Shown here in pieces: positions 115-32,712 of a DNA stretch of 64,000 nucleotides. Position 1 is the first letter of the stretch; every line of letters begins with the position of its first letter. Position numbers and translations under genes: made by a program. Location of the stretch: positions 32,001 to 96,000 of the IMG/VR virus record IMGVR_UViG_3300022671_000005, one strand, 5' to 3'. The stretch comes from a virus. Its lineage: Duplodnaviria > Caudoviricetes. Under the pieces are notes generated by a model. It saw nothing but the letters and a program-made list of their open reading frames with translations. It ran no database searches and had not been told where the DNA came from.

Positions 115-525
115 TTAACTTATATATTTTGCTTTGAAACCAGCTTCTGCTAATGCATTGATAACATTAACAATATCTGTCTCTAAGACATCAAACACTT
201 TAATGTTGATGGAATTAGTTATAGCAATAGGTGCAAGAGTAGCTTCATCTATCCACTCTACTGCAAAAGCAATTTTCCTAGCAGGATTACCATCATCTGC
301 TGTGTTGATGATTATGTATTCTTGTTCAGCAGCTGGAGTTACACTTGGAGTATCCTTAAGAACTTCTGCATGATATTTGTCAACATCAGTAAAAGCTTTG
401 GCTACATCATAGGTTACTACACCTGCTACAACACCAATCCAAACATTACTATCATACGTATTGATAGTACTGAATTGAATCTTGAGACCAGTTACAATCT
501 CGTGTCCATTAAGAATTAAACTCAT
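115..525 (-). CDS. Hypothetical phage protein (136 aa)
   Basis: ORF overlaps the groEL stop by 4 nt; natural amino acid composition; no GroES motif seen. Confidence 0.75.
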   Translation of the reverse strand: MSLILNGHEIVTGLKIQFSTINTYDSNVWIGVVAGVVTYDVAKAFTDVDKYHAEVLKDTPSVTPAAEQEYIIINTADDGNPARKIAFAVEWIDEATLAPIAITNSINIKVFDVLETDIVNVINALAEAGFKAKYIS

Positions 526-2282
526 TTTGTATCACCTTCTTTTTCATCTATTATCACACCTCCTGGTATGATAACTCGATTAGTGAACATAAACTTAAGG
601 GCTACCTCACCGAATCTTCTAATCAGACCCTTATCAACAGATATGGGTTGTAGAACAGTAGCTTCGCATTTTTCAGAATCTAAGCAATCTCTTAAACTTC
701 TTATACATTTAATTGCCACATTGTAGACCATTGGTTTATTTTCATTTAACATACTTAAAACAACATCTGCTTCATTTTCTGGTATATACTTACAAGAACA
801 TTCTGTTAGTTTTACAATACCATCTTTAAAAGCAGTAACTATAGATTTCTGAAGTTCACAATCTAAGCCTTCAAAAACCCTATCAAGGCATACCCTTAAG
901 AGTTGATAACCACCCATAGAAGCGCCTTCCAGTAGGGTAGCTCTAGTAGCCTTCATAGTGTCCTGTACAACATCTAAAAGTGCTTGATTATCATACGCTG
1001 CACCACCTATAACTATACGACCTTGTTTCTGAAGAAGTATAGTATTATAGATGCGTCTAGCATCCTTAACCATAGTGTCTGTAGTATGTGTAACCGATGT
1101 ACTTTTCTTATACTCTTCGACAAACTCATCTATATCTTTAAGGTATTTGAAGACATTACTATCTTCATCATGGAAGTCTGGATGTAACATATCTTCAGTC
1201 TTTTCCAACACCTTAGATATGCTGAGTATACCAGCTTTAAATGATACATTGGCATGATTAAGAATAGCTAAGTCTTCAGCGTTTAAATTCTTAACACCAA
1301 AAGTTGTTAACATACCAACATGATCATTGATAGTTGGACTAAAAACATTGACATTAAAAATACCAATATTCTTATTACCTTTGATACCTATCAACTCTTC
1401 GATAGTTGTTCTAACTTTTACATCAGCACCATCTGGAGCTACTATAACAACCTTCTTACCATTGGCAATATAATCCTTAAGAGTCAATACTAATTTATTG
1501 AACTCTGCAGCATTTGATACCATCTGAGACAAGCAGAGTATTACATCAGTATCTTCCAGTTCAAATGCATCACCATGTGCTGTGTTGTAAAACCTATTGT
1601 CAAAGATATGTGCTTTGCAAGAGTAATCAGATTCATCAACTTTTACAGTAATATCTTTATCTGTCTCAAGACGCTCTCTTTCAAATACCACATAGTTCCA
1701 AGCTTCTTTAGGAGTTTCTGAGTATAACTCAGCAACACATTTGGATAACTCCTTATTGCCATGTGAGCTTGACATAGCCTGAGCTAATGCAACATTATAT
1801 ATTTCCTGTTGGGTAGATACAGTTACTTTAGACTCTTCTAGGATATCAAGCATCTTAGATGAAAATACGCTATATGCTTTAGTAAACTCACCATACGAAA
1901 TACGTTTGTCTTTAAGATAAGATTTAAGAGTTTTCATTATAGCCGCAACCATGATGAGACTAGAAGTCGTCCCGTCTCCTGACTCGCGCTCTATACGTTG
2001 ACTAATATAAGCCATAGTGTCTTTAACATGTTTTTCCATAGGGCTAATAAACTCTATGGCTCTAACTATATTCAAACCATCTTTTGTAAAAGTAGGTTGT
2101 GCCGTTGGATCCGATGGATTAGTTAATATAGCAAACTTACCATATGGACCGCAATAATCTGAGAGTATCTCCATTATTGTTCCAAATGTTGAAATCATAA
2201 TCTCATCGATTTTAACCTCATCGATGATATTGGTCATTCCAACAAAAGCATTAAGTACCTGCCTCCTATCTTCTTCAGACAT
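522..2282 (-). CDS. groEL: GroEL-like chaperonin (divergent)
   Basis: GPYGK, FTKDG and GDGTTS nucleotide-binding motifs; VQDTMKATRATLLEGASMGG matches GroEL [20 protein letters not shown]. Confidence 0.9.
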   Translation of the reverse strand: MSEEDRRQVLNAFVGMTNIIDEVKIDEIMISTFGTIMEILSDYCGPYGKFAILTNPSDPTAQPTFTKDGLNIVRAIEFISPMEKHVKDTMAYISQRIERESGDGTTSSLIMVAAIMKTLKSYLKDKRISYGEFTKAYSVFSSKMLDILEESKVTVSTQQEIYNVALAQAMSSSHGNKELSKCVAELYSETPKEAWNYVVFERERLETDKDITVKVDESDYSCKAHIFDNRFYNTAHGDAFELEDTDVILCLSQMVSNAAEFNKLVLTLKDYIANGKKVVIVAPDGADVKVRTTIEELIGIKGNKNIGIFNVNVFSPTINDHVGMLTTFGVKNLNAEDLAILNHANVSFKAGILSISKVLEKTEDMLHPDFHDEDSNVFKYLKDIDEFVEEYKKSTSVTHTTDTMVKDARRIYNTILLQKQGRIVIGGAAYDNQALLDVVQDTMKATRATLLEGASMGGYQLLRVCLDRVFEGLDCELQKSIVTAFKDGIVKLTECSCKYIPENEADVVLSMLNENKPMVYNVAIKCIRSLRDCLDSEKCEATVLQPISVDKGLIRRFGEVALKFMFTNRVIIPGGVIIDEKEGDTK

Positions 2283-2287
2283 TATTT

Positions 2288-2764
2288 TTATGTTCCCTTT
2301 TCTTGAGTTTTAAGATGTTTAACACGTTCGATTAATTCCTTCTCGTTCTCGATTCTCATTTGCGTAACCCTTCTTTCAAGATCTATAAAGGAATCAAAAT
2401 CCATTTTCATAAGATCTATTGGAGTTAATCCAAATATATCGTATAATCTTTTATCAGATCCCATAGGATCTTTGATAATAGTACTGGAGCACAGATCCAT
2501 GATCCTATCATAGTAGTGACCTGTTACTGGTTTCATATCAGGTCTGTGTGAGAAATAATTATAAGGTTCTTTACTATCAATATGTTCTCTATTGAAGTGG
2601 GTGTCATAGAGGATTTGTAAACCTAAGTTCTTTTCAAATCCTCTAGCACCTATAGCTTCTTTTTGATATTGAACATACTTATTGTAAAAATCTATGATAA
2701 GATCCGGATCATCAGTTACGCCATACCTATCTGCCCCAGCTTTAGATAAGTAAGGGATGTAAAA
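2288..2764 (-). CDS. Hypothetical protein; frame open upstream of the tracked ATG (2536) to 2785 without a canonical start; probable -1 frameshift extension of the upstream gene
   Basis: Manual translation: ...FYIPYLSKAGADRYGVTDDPDLIIDFYNKYVQYQKEAIGARGFEKNLGLQILYDTHF...MKPVTG; overlaps the 3' end of 2716..4239. Confidence 0.65.
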   Translation of the reverse strand, partial: FYIPYLSKAGADRYGVTDDPDLIIDFYNKYVQYQKEAIGARGFEKNLGLQILYDTHFNREHIDSKEPYNYFSHRPDMKPVTGHYYDRIMDLCSSTIIKDPMGSDKRLYDIFGLTPIDLMKMDFDSFIDLERRVTQMRIENEKELIERVKHLKTQEKGT

Positions 2765-4239
2765 AGCGCTTGGGCATCCCAGGCTTTATACCCATTGATG
2801 TGATCAGTAGAACTCTTACCACATTTTTCACATGCAATAACAGCATATCCAACATGTGAGAGTTTAGTCCTCTTGATATAATTTGTAACTTCTTTCATAA
2901 TTATACCTTCATCCTCACTATCGTCGTTGAGTGCCAGTGCCGCATGAACACCTTTTACATCTCTACATGAGAATTCTACGCTCCCTTCATCATCAAGGTA
3001 TGACACTCTACTTATCCAAGGTGTGAAGTTCCTATTGTAGTTGAGCATTATTCTACGAGTAGTTTGAACACTACTTGCTGAATGATCCTCATTACCATTA
3101 ACAACTATCTCAGCCATTAGAGATTTTTGATATGATAATACTTCACCAATAGTTGGAACTTTGAGATCATATTTGATATGATTGTGTGAGAACGATGAAG
3201 ACATATCAAGAGTATCATTTCTATACTCTTTCAATTGTTCTGGTTTGACAGGTTCATCAGAAATGAGAAACTTAAGGGCATCTTCTGCCATTTCAGAAGT
3301 ATCAACTATTCTCATTCTGTTGATATCCATCAATTTGGATTTGGAAACATGTTGACAATCCTCATGACCACATACTAAATCAATTTTAATGCCATTCCTG
3401 TGCATCATCGAACAGACTGCCCAGTAGAGTGTATCTAGATCTTGAATAGATACATTGTCAATCAGAGTTTTCTTTTTATTCCAACCTATCAAATTTGAAT
3501 TAACAACTGCTGCATTGAGTAGGTCCATAAATTTAGCTTTGAGATGCATGTCGTGAATCATGAACATCAATCCACCAATTATTCTACCAAGCTCTTCCCC
3601 TTCCTGATCCACTTCAACATAGAAGTCGTCAAGCTCTGTTAATTCAAGGGGTCTTAAACAAACATAGAATCCAGAGTTATATAGGTATACCTTCTTAATA
3701 CCTTTAATTCTGGAAGTAAATGCCATTCTTGCGGCTTCTCCAGATAGCTCTGCATTGTAAGATTTCTTACCATGTGAAGTCTTGTCTTTATCCGATACTC
3801 TGAGTGCTGACGGATCCTTAGTTTCAGCCATTGCTTCTGAAGCAAACGCTGCTTGCATATTACTCGCTGGAGTATCATCTGTTTGAAGGAGTCTACTTAT
3901 GTAGTGATCTCTATCAGACAATATTTCTCTACGTTTCTTATGAGTAATTTTTTTATCACTAAGTACGTCACTAACCTGCTTTGCAGTTTCAACTGGATTA
4001 GTGTTGCATAGAGGTAAATGGTAATTTGCAGGTGTTGCTTTTTCAGAATCCATATTTGGACTCTCATTATTATTAACATCTTTATCAATAATTGGTTGTT
4101 CAATAGATTTAACCTGATCGGGTTCCTCAACAATTATTTCTGGAGAAGATTGTTTCTCTTCTTTCTCTTTTGCAATTTTTTCTTGCCACTCTTTTTCTGT
4201 TAACTCATTAGGTTCATTACTGTTCTGTTCTTCTGACAT
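2716..4239 (-). CDS. Conserved phiKZ-like protein (gp52-like); possible baseplate-hub/tail assembly chaperone
   Basis: Acidic disordered N-terminus; Cys motifs CGHEDC and CEKC; lies near the DNA polymerase gene as in phiKZ-like phages. Confidence 0.55.
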   Translation of the reverse strand: MSEEQNSNEPNELTEKEWQEKIAKEKEEKQSSPEIIVEEPDQVKSIEQPIIDKDVNNNESPNMDSEKATPANYHLPLCNTNPVETAKQVSDVLSDKKITHKKRREILSDRDHYISRLLQTDDTPASNMQAAFASEAMAETKDPSALRVSDKDKTSHGKKSYNAELSGEAARMAFTSRIKGIKKVYLYNSGFYVCLRPLELTELDDFYVEVDQEGEELGRIIGGLMFMIHDMHLKAKFMDLLNAAVVNSNLIGWNKKKTLIDNVSIQDLDTLYWAVCSMMHRNGIKIDLVCGHEDCQHVSKSKLMDINRMRIVDTSEMAEDALKFLISDEPVKPEQLKEYRNDTLDMSSSFSHNHIKYDLKVPTIGEVLSYQKSLMAEIVVNGNEDHSASSVQTTRRIMLNYNRNFTPWISRVSYLDDEGSVEFSCRDVKGVHAALALNDDSEDEGIIMKEVTNYIKRTKLSHVGYAVIACEKCGKSSTDHINGYKAWDAQALFTSLTYLKLGQIGMA

Positions 4240-4310
4240 TGCGTATACTCCTTTTAGGGTTTAAATTATAGTTAAGTATATGATTACCAGTACCATTAAA
4301 AATAAAAAAT

Positions 4311-4342
4311 ATACAGGTTGGTCCTGTTGGACCAACCTGTAT
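4311..4342. terminator. Inverted repeat, 14-bp stem
   Basis: atacaggttggtcc-tgtt-ggaccaacctgtat, followed by a T-run on the minus strand. Confidence 0.75.
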
Positions 4343-4354
4343 CATATTCGAACA

Positions 4355-5212
4355 CTATGCAATCTTAGGAAACCAAAGACTGACGGGTTGTACAGATTCT
4401 ACTTTTATGAGGTCATCCTCATAAATAATCACCAACCCAACTGACTTTTTGTTGGGCGCAACACATATGTTTGTAGTACCACATTGTTTAGACTTCTTAA
4501 CATACTCTGATTTAGATATGGAAGTTAAACCTTCATAAATTGGTATCTTGAGTAAGTAATCACTGTTTATCTTGGGTAATTTACTGAAGTCTATTTCCAC
4601 ACGTGACAATCGAGTTCCAGTAGCCAAAACATTATTAACAGGTACAAACGAAACATTTTCATTACACAAAACATTCCTATGGAATACAGCATAATTGTTC
4701 TTTATGGCACCAATCAAATGGTCACTTACTTTTATAGCAACCAATTTATCTACAGGTGGTTTACCTTTAACTGTTTTTGTGATAAATACTTTTTTTTCAT
4801 CGTCACTATATTTAAAGGAATCCAGCAATCCTTTATTGACAGTGGTTGATAATTCAGAAATATTTATACATGATCTTCCAGTTAAACAGAACGGGAAAAT
4901 CCTCATTAAAGTAGTCACAAAGTCCTCGTTTTTAAATGCAACTTTATGAACAAAATCATCTACTGTAGGTTTATACATATAAACTGGAACCATAGGAGCC
5001 TCTTTCTTACCATTTTTCTTACCTATTGGCATCTTGTGTCCCATGGTAGAGAAATATACATTTAACGGATCTGTTGAATCGATCCATAAATATTTTTGTC
5101 TTCTAGCAAACAAGGAAGATAAAAATAATCTTAATACATCTAGGTCTTCTTTTTCCAATTTCATATTTACACCAGATTTAATATTTGAACTTTCATTACA
5201 TACAAAGTTCAC
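4355..5212 (-). CDS. Hypothetical protein (basic; start may be 5164)
   Basis: 285-aa ORF followed by a hairpin. Confidence 0.7.
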   Translation of the reverse strand: MNFVCNESSNIKSGVNMKLEKEDLDVLRLFLSSLFARRQKYLWIDSTDPLNVYFSTMGHKMPIGKKNGKKEAPMVPVYMYKPTVDDFVHKVAFKNEDFVTTLMRIFPFCLTGRSCINISELSTTVNKGLLDSFKYSDDEKKVFITKTVKGKPPVDKLVAIKVSDHLIGAIKNNYAVFHRNVLCNENVSFVPVNNVLATGTRLSRVEIDFSKLPKINSDYLLKIPIYEGLTSISKSEYVKKSKQCGTTNICVAPNKKSVGLVIIYEDDLIKVESVQPVSLWFPKIA

Positions 5213-30156: not shown

Positions 30157-32712
30157 ATGGCAGAAGAGAATAATAAAGAAGCAATTAGGCGTTGGTCTAG
30201 AATTTTTTCACTATTTGGTGTCAATAAAGAGACTCCAACTAATCAACAACCTAATCCATCAAATGACTTGTCCGCACCTTTATCGTCTGGAGCTTTTAGT
30301 AATCAAGAACTTGAATACCTTCCAGGGTTTGCAGCATCTAAAACAGATTCGACTAAGATAAGTCATATTGAAACTTATCTCAACAGAACTTCAGATAACG
30401 TTGTTCAAAGAACTAGAGAGATCCAAAGATTTAAAGTTCTTACTCCTGAAATTGGTAAGGCTAAGATGGTTCTTGTTCCAACTATCATGTCTCCAAATGA
30501 TGTTCAGACGGACAGCATTGCTATCACTGTTGATTGTGATGATATAGAACCAGAAACCGCAATGGACCTTGCTAATGACCTGACAACCTATTTTAATGAT
30601 CATCTTAAGCTTAGCACTAAAGTAGCAGATTGGATAGGTGAGGCACTATTTGAGTCCGGAGCCAAACCAGTTCTTATTTTGCCTAAAGGACCCATATCTT
30701 TACTTACTGATGCGATGGATCTAGAAAAAGAGCTAGCTAAAGAAGGTAAAGTTCTAGGTGTAGGTATGGAAAACATATCTATAAAAATGGAAGGTTACAA
30801 TGATGTTAATATAAGTGAAGAATCTTTAGAGTTAAATTTAATAGACAATGAAGATTTGAATATCTTAGACATTGACATTGAAGATGCCATTACTGATCAG
30901 TTTGCTGACCTTATGGATGAAGATAGTAAAATTAAGACTTCAGTAGAGTCCATGGTCAAAGCGGCAAAAGATAATAAAAAGAAGGTTAATGAGAGGGTAA
31001 AAGATGTCTTCACATTTACCACTGATTATAGATCTATCATGTCTGGTAAGGACACGAAGGATTCTAAAGTAAAAACTCTGACGAAAAGAGTTGCTCAAAG
31101 TTTATATGGCTCAGCTGGTGGTAGATTATTTATTGGTAGTGATGAGGGTGATCTAAAAGATGGAGACCATCCGACACTTATACCTTTACCTTCCGAATCC
31201 GTGATACCTGTAGCTGTACCTGGGAGTCCTTCTGAACATATAGGATATTTCATTCTAACCGATGGATTTGGTAACCCCATTGATGAGACAGGCACTGGCG
31301 ATGCAGCTAGTCCTTACCATAGCACTAATAAGAGTAAATCTTCTTGTAATGCTACTTTGAATGAGGGTACTCAAATCATATATGGTGGTTCTTTTGGTAG
31401 TGACAATATTACTAAAAACCAACAGTTTGAAGCAGCTTCCACAGTGTTTGGTATCACTATAAGAAAAATGCTTGAAGAAAAACTTAGAGATAATGATCTT
31501 GAAGGTATTACCCTAAAACAACATCAAGCTATCATGACTACGTTGTTTCAAAGACTTATCAGAAAAGCAAAGGTTAGAATCTTATTTGTACCCTCAACTA
31601 TGGTTGCTTATTATGCTTTCGGTTATCGTCCAGACGGAACAGGTAAGTCTATACTGGAAGATAGTTCTTTCCTCATTTCATTGCGTAACACTATGGTTAT
31701 AGCTAATGTTTTGACAGCTATTAAGAACTCAACTGATAGAACTCGAATTGAGTTTAATGTTGGTGATCAAGCCACAAACGTTGAGCAAATAATGGACACT
31801 GTTAAAAAGATGTTTGTATCTAAACGGATGCTTAACTTCGAACACGATCCATTAACTGTCGCACGAGATCTTATTCAAAACTCAGTATCCATTATCCCAA
31901 AAGGTCTAAGAGGTCTTGAAGATTTGGATGTACAAACTGACAATGCAGGTGGCTCTAATTCCACTGAACCAGATACTGACATGATGGATAAAATGTCAGA
32001 GTTAGTTACACTCAGTATGGGTATTCCTCCATCTGCATTAAATAGGTTGAGTGAAGATGAATATTCTAGATCTATAGCAACTACTAATTTATTCTTTGCT
32101 AATGAAGTAAGGATGAAGCAGCTAGTTGTTACAGAAACTACCACCCAGTTGGTTAGACAGTATATCTATACATCTAAAGAATTAATGACTAAGATTATAG
32201 ATATTCTTAAGATAACTAATAAGTCTGATAAAACTGATGTTGATGCTAATGATGACACTGTCAATTCTGACAATCTTGAGAACCAGACTGATGATAAGAT
32301 TTCTAAAGTTGAAGATGTTCTTTATAAGGTTATCAATGGTGTTAGTGTTAATCTCCCAACTCCAACTATTGCTGCAACTAAAGCACAATATGAAGAGTTA
32401 AGGGAAGCTGTAGATGCAGTGGATCAATTGGTCGACAAACTCTTTGACGAGGAGACTATTGGTGTTGATGATAACGAGACTAAAGAAGCTTATAATGCTA
32501 TGAAAGGATTCGTTAGACAGTTAGTACTCAGAAAGATTGCAGCTGAGTTAGGACCTCACGGAGCTATAAATATACCTAGCATTAATAACATAGATCAAGA
32601 TGAAATAGCGGACTTCAATCAAGCCATTATTAACTTCAAACGTCAATTGTCAGACATGAAGAAAAGTCTAGACAAGAAAGTTGAAGAAGAGGGTGGTGGA
32701 AGTAGATGGTAA
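30157..32712 (+). CDS. Portal protein (phiKZ gp129-like; start corrected from 30094)
   Basis: TIMSPND, ESVIPVAVPGSPSEHIGYFILTDGFGNP, GTGKSILED; ggag RBS before ATG 30157. Confidence 0.8.
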   Translation: MAEENNKEAIRRWSRIFSLFGVNKETPTNQQPNPSNDLSAPLSSGAFSNQELEYLPGFAASKTDSTKISHIETYLNRTSDNVVQRTREIQRFKVLTPEIGKAKMVLVPTIMSPNDVQTDSIAITVDCDDIEPETAMDLANDLTTYFNDHLKLSTKVADWIGEALFESGAKPVLILPKGPISLLTDAMDLEKELAKEGKVLGVGMENISIKMEGYNDVNISEESLELNLIDNEDLNILDIDIEDAITDQFADLMDEDSKIKTSVESMVKAAKDNKKKVNERVKDVFTFTTDYRSIMSGKDTKDSKVKTLTKRVAQSLYGSAGGRLFIGSDEGDLKDGDHPTLIPLPSESVIPVAVPGSPSEHIGYFILTDGFGNPIDETGTGDAASPYHSTNKSKSSCNATLNEGTQIIYGGSFGSDNITKNQQFEAASTVFGITIRKMLEEKLRDNDLEGITLKQHQAIMTTLFQRLIRKAKVRILFVPSTMVAYYAFGYRPDGTGKSILEDSSFLISLRNTMVIANVLTAIKNSTDRTRIEFNVGDQATNVEQIMDTVKKMFVSKRMLNFEHDPLTVARDLIQNSVSIIPKGLRGLEDLDVQTDNAGGSNSTEPDTDMMDKMSELVTLSMGIPPSALNRLSEDEYSRSIATTNLFFANEVRMKQLVVTETTTQLVRQYIYTSKELMTKIIDILKITNKSDKTDVDANDDTVNSDNLENQTDDKISKVEDVLYKVINGVSVNLPTPTIAATKAQYEELREAVDAVDQLVDKLFDEETIGVDDNETKEAYNAMKGFVRQLVLRKIAAELGPHGAINIPSINNIDQDEIADFNQAIINFKRQLSDMKKSLDKKVEEEGGGSRW

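Follow-up and report, generated by a model that had tools for sequence, protein, structure and literature searches.

A probable programmed -1 ribosomal frameshift linking a phiKZ gp77-like gene to a startless downstream frame in phiKZ-like jumbo phages

In the gene pairs G/GT of phage lambda and E/E' of phage P2, a -1 shift of the ribosome a few codons before the stop of the upstream open reading frame (ORF) gives rise to a minor, C-terminally extended fusion protein beside a short form that is abundant; the downstream frame lacks its own start, and the arrangement is kept despite divergence of the sequences. The P2 site is U-rich (T6G). In gene 10A/10B of phage T7, which is a long structural gene, a -1 shift takes place on a U- and Phe-rich site close to its 3' end, and a minority of the product carries a C-terminal extension. 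The present report concerns a locus of comparable organisation in a window of 64,000 nucleotides (nt), namely positions 32,001 to 96,000 of the IMG/VR virus record IMGVR_UViG_3300022671_000005 (Duplodnaviria; Caudoviricetes), and all coordinates given below are those of this whole stretch. The record holding the window is 142 kb long with a completeness estimate of 55%, and its source is therefore taken to be a jumbo phage. The locus comprises a gene of 507 codons (ORF1), related to gene 77 of phage phiKZ, and an overlapping downstream frame (ORF2) in the -1 register. The reading favoured here, with a probability of roughly 0.7, is a programmed -1 shift in the terminal part of ORF1, by which two proteins would be made from one start. 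A literature search, with most subscription journals outside its reach, did not reveal any account of frameshifting for phiKZ gp77 or for homologous genes.

The locus shares with lambda G/GT and P2 E/E' the position of the putative shift, the startless downstream frame and the persistence of the arrangement in diverged sequences. An earlier note on this DNA had likened it to a lambda G/GT-type pair of tail assembly chaperones, an analogy which holds for the mechanism only and fails on size, context and homology. The two systems are not homologous, and ORF1 encodes 507 amino acids (aa) against roughly 140 for G. The G/GT pair lies between the tail tube and tape-measure genes, whereas the locus adjoins, in the window's clade, a chaperonin gene, a 285-aa ORF and a divergent DNA polymerase gene; the corresponding pair of phiKZ adjoins genes for head proteins, and a role in tail assembly is unproven. 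T7 gene 10A/10B resembles the locus in the -1 shift near the gene end and differs from it in the protein family and in the nature of the extension, here a domain of about 150 aa that is predicted to fold and whose ORF is kept throughout the virus family. The locus is classified as an instance, in a new gene family, of a canonical mechanism, with conservation throughout the whole virus family.

ORF1, the -1 frame, the T-run and the hairpin described below all lie on the minus strand. ORF1 (4239..2716), a phiKZ-gp77-like member of phrog_4585, gives the 507-aa zero-frame product and ends with TAA at 2718-2716. The ORF2 frame (2785..2288) is bounded upstream by TAA at 2788-2786, runs for 165 open codons to the stop at 2290-2288 and overlaps the last 70 nt of ORF1 in the -1 register. 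A gene caller assigns to it only the 82-aa ORF 2536..2288, upstream of which 83 further codons are free of ATG, GTG and TTG, as the earlier note had described. The proposed shift site is G_CUU_UUU (2767-2761; 8-mer G-CUU-UUU-A, 2767-2760) with a T5 run at 2765-2761, the zero-frame codons around it being GCG CTT TTT ACA (2769-2758). The stem of a hairpin (2755-2721) begins 5-8 nt 3' of the run, which places a potential stimulatory structure within the 5-9 nt downstream of the site that is customary for -1 shifts.

According to the proposed mechanism, most of the ribosomes would terminate at the ORF1 stop and release the 507-aa gp77-like protein, while a fraction, stalled by the hairpin, would slip back by one base on the U-run (CUU UUU, 2766-2761) and read the -1 frame to 2288. 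The predicted trans-frame protein has 650 aa (493 + 157), in agreement with the size of about 650 aa given earlier. Its C-terminal extension of 157 aa (YIPYLSK...) would be read from 2763 on, with the junction ...AWDAQALF-YIPYLSK and the predicted junction peptide AWDAQALFYIPYLSK. The last 14 residues of ORF1, which form a short C-terminal helix, would thereby be exchanged for a flexible linker and, after it, a helical domain of about 140 residues. The function of such a shift would possibly be to set a fixed ratio between two forms of an assembly protein of the baseplate hub type. A Shine-Dalgarno-like GGGA (2781-2776, UGGGAU in the Trp-Asp codons of ORF1) is located 11-14 nt upstream of the T-run, a spacing close to that of the internal Shine-Dalgarno sequence which stimulates the -1 shift in Escherichia coli dnaX; it is kept across the clade that has the Ala-Trp-Asp motif, and constraint on the protein may be the cause.

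The startless stretch of the -1 frame is coding, since its codon usage is gene-like. Between 2715 and 2537 the score of the -1 frame is +0.33 bit per codon, while the other frames score -0.45 and -1.87, and the called part of ORF2 scores +0.29, which is the level of the startless stretch. The chance of 60-83 open codons from base composition is about 0.012 to 0.002, off-frame stops occurring at 0.108 per codon in the genes of the window. The 76 codons between the T5 run and the ATG at 2536 are kept with two related loci (L007 and L004; the compared loci carry L numbers and WIN denotes the locus of the window) and show proportions of nonsynonymous (pN) and synonymous (pS) differences of 0.33 and 0.95, these measures being given instead of dN/dS, as the saturation of synonymous sites in the available pairs precludes an estimate of the latter. 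Within the startless stretch pN is well below pS for the pairs WIN/L007, L009/L013 and L021/L023. The first ATG of the frame (2536-2534), from which the gene caller begins, has no Shine-Dalgarno sequence (pairing energy +0.4 kcal/mol, whereas 43 genes of the window have a median of -5.4). It also lies inside a conserved domain, and a protein started there would lose helices 1-2 of the predicted fold. A startless, coding -1 ORF is thus conserved from the proposed shift site onwards.

The comparison was extended to contigs encoding relatives of ORF2, to viral and metagenome contigs and to cultured phages. The cultured phages gathered were pEa_SNUABM_54, Eowyn, phiKZ, Xoo-sp14, Centimanus, HPP-Temi, AH06, RSL2, PCH45, pVa-21, JM-2012, SPFM4 and ChrisDB. 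Removal of duplicates left 32 loci, 21 metagenomic and 11 from cultured phages, in which the identity of ORF1 to that of the window ranges from 21% to 65% and the guanine-plus-cytosine (GC) content from 25% to 61%. A small downstream ORF in the -1 frame is present in all the 32 loci. The frame is open from the T-run to a stop 143-178 codons later, the run itself lying 26-142 nt before the ORF1 stop; over the same span the +1 frame contains 4-33 stops (16 complete loci counted). The T-run always codes for a conserved (L/V/T)-Phe-Phe of ORF1. A perfect U_UUU_UUN in the phase of ORF1 is found in 24 of the loci, genomes of 55-61% GC included, and the eight imperfect sites comprise four of the form CUU_UUU (WIN, L007, L018 and pVa-21) and four of the form G/A_UUU_UUY. 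Upstream of the run, the -1 frame is without ATG, GTG or TTG in 21 of the 32 loci and, in 16, without CTG, ATT, ATC or ATA as well; in 12 loci it opens at most 12 nt ahead of the run. Past the run, a median of 37 codons (range 7-95) precedes the first canonical start.

The choice of codons at the run points in the same direction. All 32 loci use TTT as the first Phe codon, against 13.6 expected from the usage of each gene (P 4e-15), and the preceding codon ends in T in 28, against 11.2 expected (P 2e-11), values which overstate the independence of the observations, as the loci are kin and the site was located through a search for T-runs; synonymous sites are, on the other hand, saturated between most pairs of loci. 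The preceding codon ends in T irrespective of whether it specifies Leu, Val, Ile, Thr, Ser or Gly. At 55-61% GC, where TTT makes up 6-10% of the Phe codons, coding sequence retains T7 and T8 runs. The Xanthomonas phage Xoo-sp14 (L033, 2194-2200) has 61% GC, with TTT at about 6% of Phe codons and T at 12% of third positions, and carries CTT TTT TTC at the site; the Ralstonia phage RSL2 (L037, 1894-1901), at 55% GC, carries GTT TTT TTT. Judged by composition, such runs are clean cases of selection for a slippery site against the base composition of the genome. The universal T-run and -1 ORF, the prevalence of perfect heptamers and the synonymous conservation speak most strongly for the fusion of the two frames that the earlier note had proposed, and comparison of the 32 loci, phiKZ gp77/gp76.4 among them, shows that the -1 arrangement and the U-run are kept by selection.

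The homologous gene pair of phiKZ consists of gp77 (PHIKZ077) and PHIKZ076.4. At the aligned Phe-Phe, the phiKZ sequence is ACT TTT TTT ACT (U_UUU_UUU), a perfect heptamer, whereas the window has T5. The ORF2 parts of the two phages are only marginally similar (hhalign E 0.077) and occupy the same relative position. In the phiKZ record (L032, AF399011.1, 3613-4128; gp77 ends at 3667), a -1 frame of 167 codons extends from U_UUU_UUU and ends as the 80-aa PHIKZ076.4. The 218-nt 'intergenic' gap between gp77 and PHIKZ076.4, which are annotated as two genes, is open in the -1 frame and contains no start codon. The trans-frame junction predicted for phiKZ is ...STFF-YFGGLEVKPDGVVNDLR, with the junction peptide ...STFFYFGGLEVK....

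The hairpin of the window has the structure drawn in the earlier note. Its strands, CC-U-UACUUAUCU and AGAUAGGUA-U-GG, form a 9-bp core, in which TACTTATCT (2752-2744) pairs with AGATAGGTA (2732-2724), and two outer G-C pairs between CC (2755-2754) and GG (2722-2721), with a loop of 11 nt. Its predicted stability is -11.4 kcal/mol, in the 6th percentile of the 48-nt windows of the locus. The region aligns free of gaps across 13 loci of the window's clade, and in these 69% of the stem cells are paired; with the partners displaced by 1-3 columns, the figure falls to 31-38%. Changes on both sides are seen in seven of the 11 stem pairs, and the covariation score of the stem (0.286, against 0.162 for shuffled alignments) was reached by none of 500 shuffles. 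Compensation can be seen in the pairings UAUCU/AGAUA of the window, UAUCG/CGAUA of L004 and CUACUGG/CCGGUAG of L018, which is rich in GC. The covariation shows that the hairpin is kept by selection within the clade. In the wider set, the 48 nt past the run are more stable than the locus background in the 21 metagenomic loci (Fisher P 2e-4) and, by the same test, in 13 cultured phages (Fisher P 0.04).

Besides the kinship of the loci, several observations weigh against a programmed shift, and the first of them concern the site of the window itself. G_CUU_UUU is not an X_XXY_YYZ heptamer, a caveat rightly raised in the earlier note: a slip by -1 would bring the P-site tRNA-Leu opposite GCU, and only the A-site tRNA-Phe would re-pair (U_UUU). 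Re-pairing on a single tetramer is a weak bacterial frameshift motif of the 'tetramer' kind. The hairpin is not clearly conserved outside the window's clade and thus appears clade-specific rather than universal. Every homologue of ORF2 in the databases is a stand-alone protein, and no natural in-frame ORF1-ORF2 fusion was found among longer proteins, which is weak evidence; the searches for ORF2 homologues and for longer proteins are both blind to frameshifted genes. Lastly, a CTG in the -1 frame (2782-2780), inside the Ala-Trp codons of ORF1 (GCC TGG), aligns with ATG in L004, L009 and L016 and with GTG in L011, so that a free ORF2 protein of 164 aa is possible, and a weak Shine-Dalgarno-like GGGU precedes it (-3.7 kcal/mol).

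The last of these observations leads to the rival explanation that survives best, although it is unlikely, namely that ORF2 is a separate overlapping gene with an initiation of its own at a non-canonical start (CTG in the window; in some relatives ATG, GTG or TTG, within the Ala-Trp codons), the U-run being a mere by-product of Phe-Phe. Non-canonical initiation had been named in the earlier note as a finding that would count against the shift, and the four relatives with ATG or GTG at this position keep that concern alive. The CTG aligns, moreover, with the Met of MGC... in the database proteins P0003 and P0014, as well as with the GTG, read as Met, from which P0015 starts; the -1 frame acquires a start from any GCN TGG in which N is A, G or T. 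However, CTG is a very poor start in bacteria, the Ala-Trp motif is limited to one clade whereas the T-run and the -1 ORF are universal, and the absence of canonical starts before the run in 21 loci, and of CTG and ATH also in 16, leaves most of the family without a point of entry. L009 and its relative L013 are instructive in this regard. L009 reads ATG GGA TGT AGA ACG GCT TTT TTT (MGCRTAFF...) and L013 reads ATG GGA CGT TGA ACG ACT TTT TTT, so that in the latter the potential start of ORF2 is blocked by a TGA three codons later and before the run, while the frame past the run stays open and conserved. Nor does coding for Phe-Phe explain the synonymous conservation of U_UUU_UUN in GC-rich genomes. 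Since most of the family is without a start there and a stop follows it in L013, the CTG is considered fortuitous.

A slightly less likely alternative is transcriptional slippage, in which the RNA polymerase would add an extra U on the T-run and an equal fusion protein would result from a shift at the level of RNA. T7-T8 runs are found in most of the relatives, and such runs are near the lengths at which bacterial RNA polymerases slip; the phages also use RNA polymerases of their own. The run is, however, nearly always phased as X_XXY_YYZ in the frame of ORF1 (24 of 32 perfect), a phasing that slippage does not require, and the T5 variants, the window included, are too short for efficient slippage. 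The covarying hairpin at 5-8 nt is likewise the signature of a ribosomal stimulator. The shift is hence taken to be ribosomal rather than transcriptional.

A shift of this kind would presumably still operate on the weakened T5 site of the window. Both the window and its closest relative, L007, have T5 only (CTT TTT ACA/ACC), as though one Phe codon had been lost. The variant CUU UUU recurs in separate lineages (WIN/L007, L018 and the Vibrio phage pVa-21), and the long startless -1 ORF is kept in all of them. At the T5 loci, the stability of the hairpin lies in the 2nd-6th percentile for WIN, L007 and L018 and in the 16th for pVa-21 (L039), the median of all loci being around the 20th. Strong hairpins at T5 loci may fit a compensation between slippery site and stimulator, in a small sample. 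The weakest alternative, decay of the mechanism in the lineage of WIN and L007, such that ORF2 would now be made only as 82 aa from the ATG at 2536 or not at all and the open frame upstream would be a remnant, could account for the reduction of the heptamer to T5 and of the Ala-Trp start to CTG in both loci and for the existence of database homologues called from internal starts, but is quite improbable, as the 76 codons from the run to that ATG are open, gene-like in codon usage and conserved with L007 and L004, the ATG is without a Shine-Dalgarno sequence and inside a conserved domain, and the hairpin is retained and strong.

An error of assembly in the homopolymer, which the earlier note had also considered, was rejected. 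L007 comes from an independent sample and has the same T5, the same frames and the same zero-frame tail, and distant homologues end within a few residues of the end of ORF1. The zero-frame end is regarded as genuine because the homologue of a distant Erwinia phage aligns through residue 503 of the 507 of ORF1. Both products of the proposed shift look real, the zero-frame tail having homologues and the -1 stretch being coding and conserved.

The homologues of ORF2 were sought in several ways. An exhaustive profile-free search with the 165-aa frame retrieved only 20 relatives, all of them small 'stand-alone' proteins of 60-163 aa. The argument that such proteins speak against a fusion was dropped, as they are products of gene callers from the first ATG or TTG and their DNA has a startless upstream frame too. 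Since the -1 frame is without starts where an independent gene would need them, gene callers choose arbitrary internal starts, and the 'stand-alone' proteins of the databases, the 80-aa phiKZ gp76.4 included, are the consequence. A tblastn search of cultured phages with the ORF2 frame and a nucleotide search of a phage collection with the locus gave no match, a search for related loci with a single ORF1 protein returned nothing, and the alignment of ORF2 was too divergent to yield search patterns. ORF2 is predicted to begin with a disordered linker of about 19 residues and to continue as a helical domain; it has no match in Pfam or PHROG, and its predicted helical fold has no significant match in BFVD.

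The family of ORF1 is better defined. ORF1 matches phrog_4585, of unassigned function in PHROG, over residues 6-485 (E 4e-34), as do all the 15 aligned family members. The profile of the 15 members aligns with phiKZ gp77 over 358 columns (hhalign, probability 98.9%, E 1e-17), and the alignment reaches the C-terminus, with ...IDMLSTFFTLAASKS in phiKZ and ...AWDAQALFTSLTYLKL in the window. Judged by this profile alignment, ORF1 is homologous to phiKZ gp77, and the label 'gp52-like' given to the gene earlier is wrong. With the Eowyn homologue as query, tblastn matched 194 phage records, for the most part of phiKZ-like jumbo phages, and 11 of the 194 were inspected. The AlphaFold model of ORF1 has a mean confidence (pLDDT) of 76, and the zero-frame tail is a helix (residues 489-503); the C-terminus carries a CxxC zinc ribbon.

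Clues to the function of ORF1 are few. No relative of solved structure was found by sequence, Foldseek or VIA-align, which gave matches to long helices only (Z < 7). Around 20 BFVD models of baseplate hub subunits or hub assembly proteins match the ORF1 model in Foldseek (E 1e-4 to 1e-2, TM score by target about 0.5). PF12322 (T4_baseplate) is annotated on 14-24% of the members of Atlas clusters and is matched by two of the 15 family members (E 0.0045); ORF1 has no match to it above the Pfam threshold, and it was not detected in the window's own genome. The C-terminal zinc ribbon of the ORF1 family aligns with that of T4 gp26 (hhalign E 2e-4, probability 45%), CEKCGK of ORF1 against CPECGK of gp26, while T4 gp51 gave no match to ORF1. 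Among proteins of known role, T4 gp26 alone shows a relationship in sequence to ORF1, a weak one, and ORF1 is more than twice as long. T4 gene 26 (L043, AF158101.6, 2803-3429) is annotated with two products, gp26 and gp26', the latter arising by internal in-frame initiation. T4 gene 26 is not known to contain a frameshift. The link to T4 gp26 and PF12322 baseplate hub proteins is weak and is regarded as a lead only. As the sole functional lead, it leaves the role of 'chaperone', suggested in the earlier note, unproven, and neither ORF1 nor ORF2 has a Pfam or PHROG match to a chaperone.

The gene order around the locus is characteristic of the window's clade. In the window (522-5212) and in L004, L007, L009, L026, L029 and L031, an ORF of about 270-285 aa is followed by ORF1, ORF2, a chaperonin gene (Cpn60_TCP1) and a gene for a protein of about 135 aa, which belongs to PF20287 (SH3DP) in L004 and L026. 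The chaperonin of the window (Cpn60/TCP-1 family, 586 aa; 2282..522, minus strand) lies directly downstream of ORF2 and is a neighbour kept in the clade; it is absent at the corresponding position in phiKZ and the Eowyn-like phages. Upstream of these genes, L007 carries the gene for the divergent DNA polymerase (PF20286) on the opposite strand.

On balance, it seems that all nucleus-forming (phiKZ-like, Chimalliviridae) jumbo phages and their relatives would make the hitherto unrecognised trans-frame protein (gp77-gp76.4 in phiKZ) from a U_UUU_UUY site kept since the origin of the family, that the ratio of the short and the long form would control a step of assembly, possibly of the baseplate hub, and that the small 'hypothetical' genes after gp77 homologues would not be separate genes. 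If the shift is confirmed, the annotation of the gene pair would be corrected, the small ORFs called from an arbitrary internal ATG or TTG being the C-terminal domain of the gp77 trans-frame protein, and the series from perfect U_UUU_UUY sites to T5 variants with stronger hairpins would constitute a data set on the trade-off between slippery site and stimulator. Confirmation would also mean a deeply conserved recoding event in an intensively studied family, that of phiKZ and the nucleus-forming jumbo phages, and a protein of unassigned function would gain a logic, that of two C-terminal forms in a fixed ratio, as in the tail assembly chaperones.

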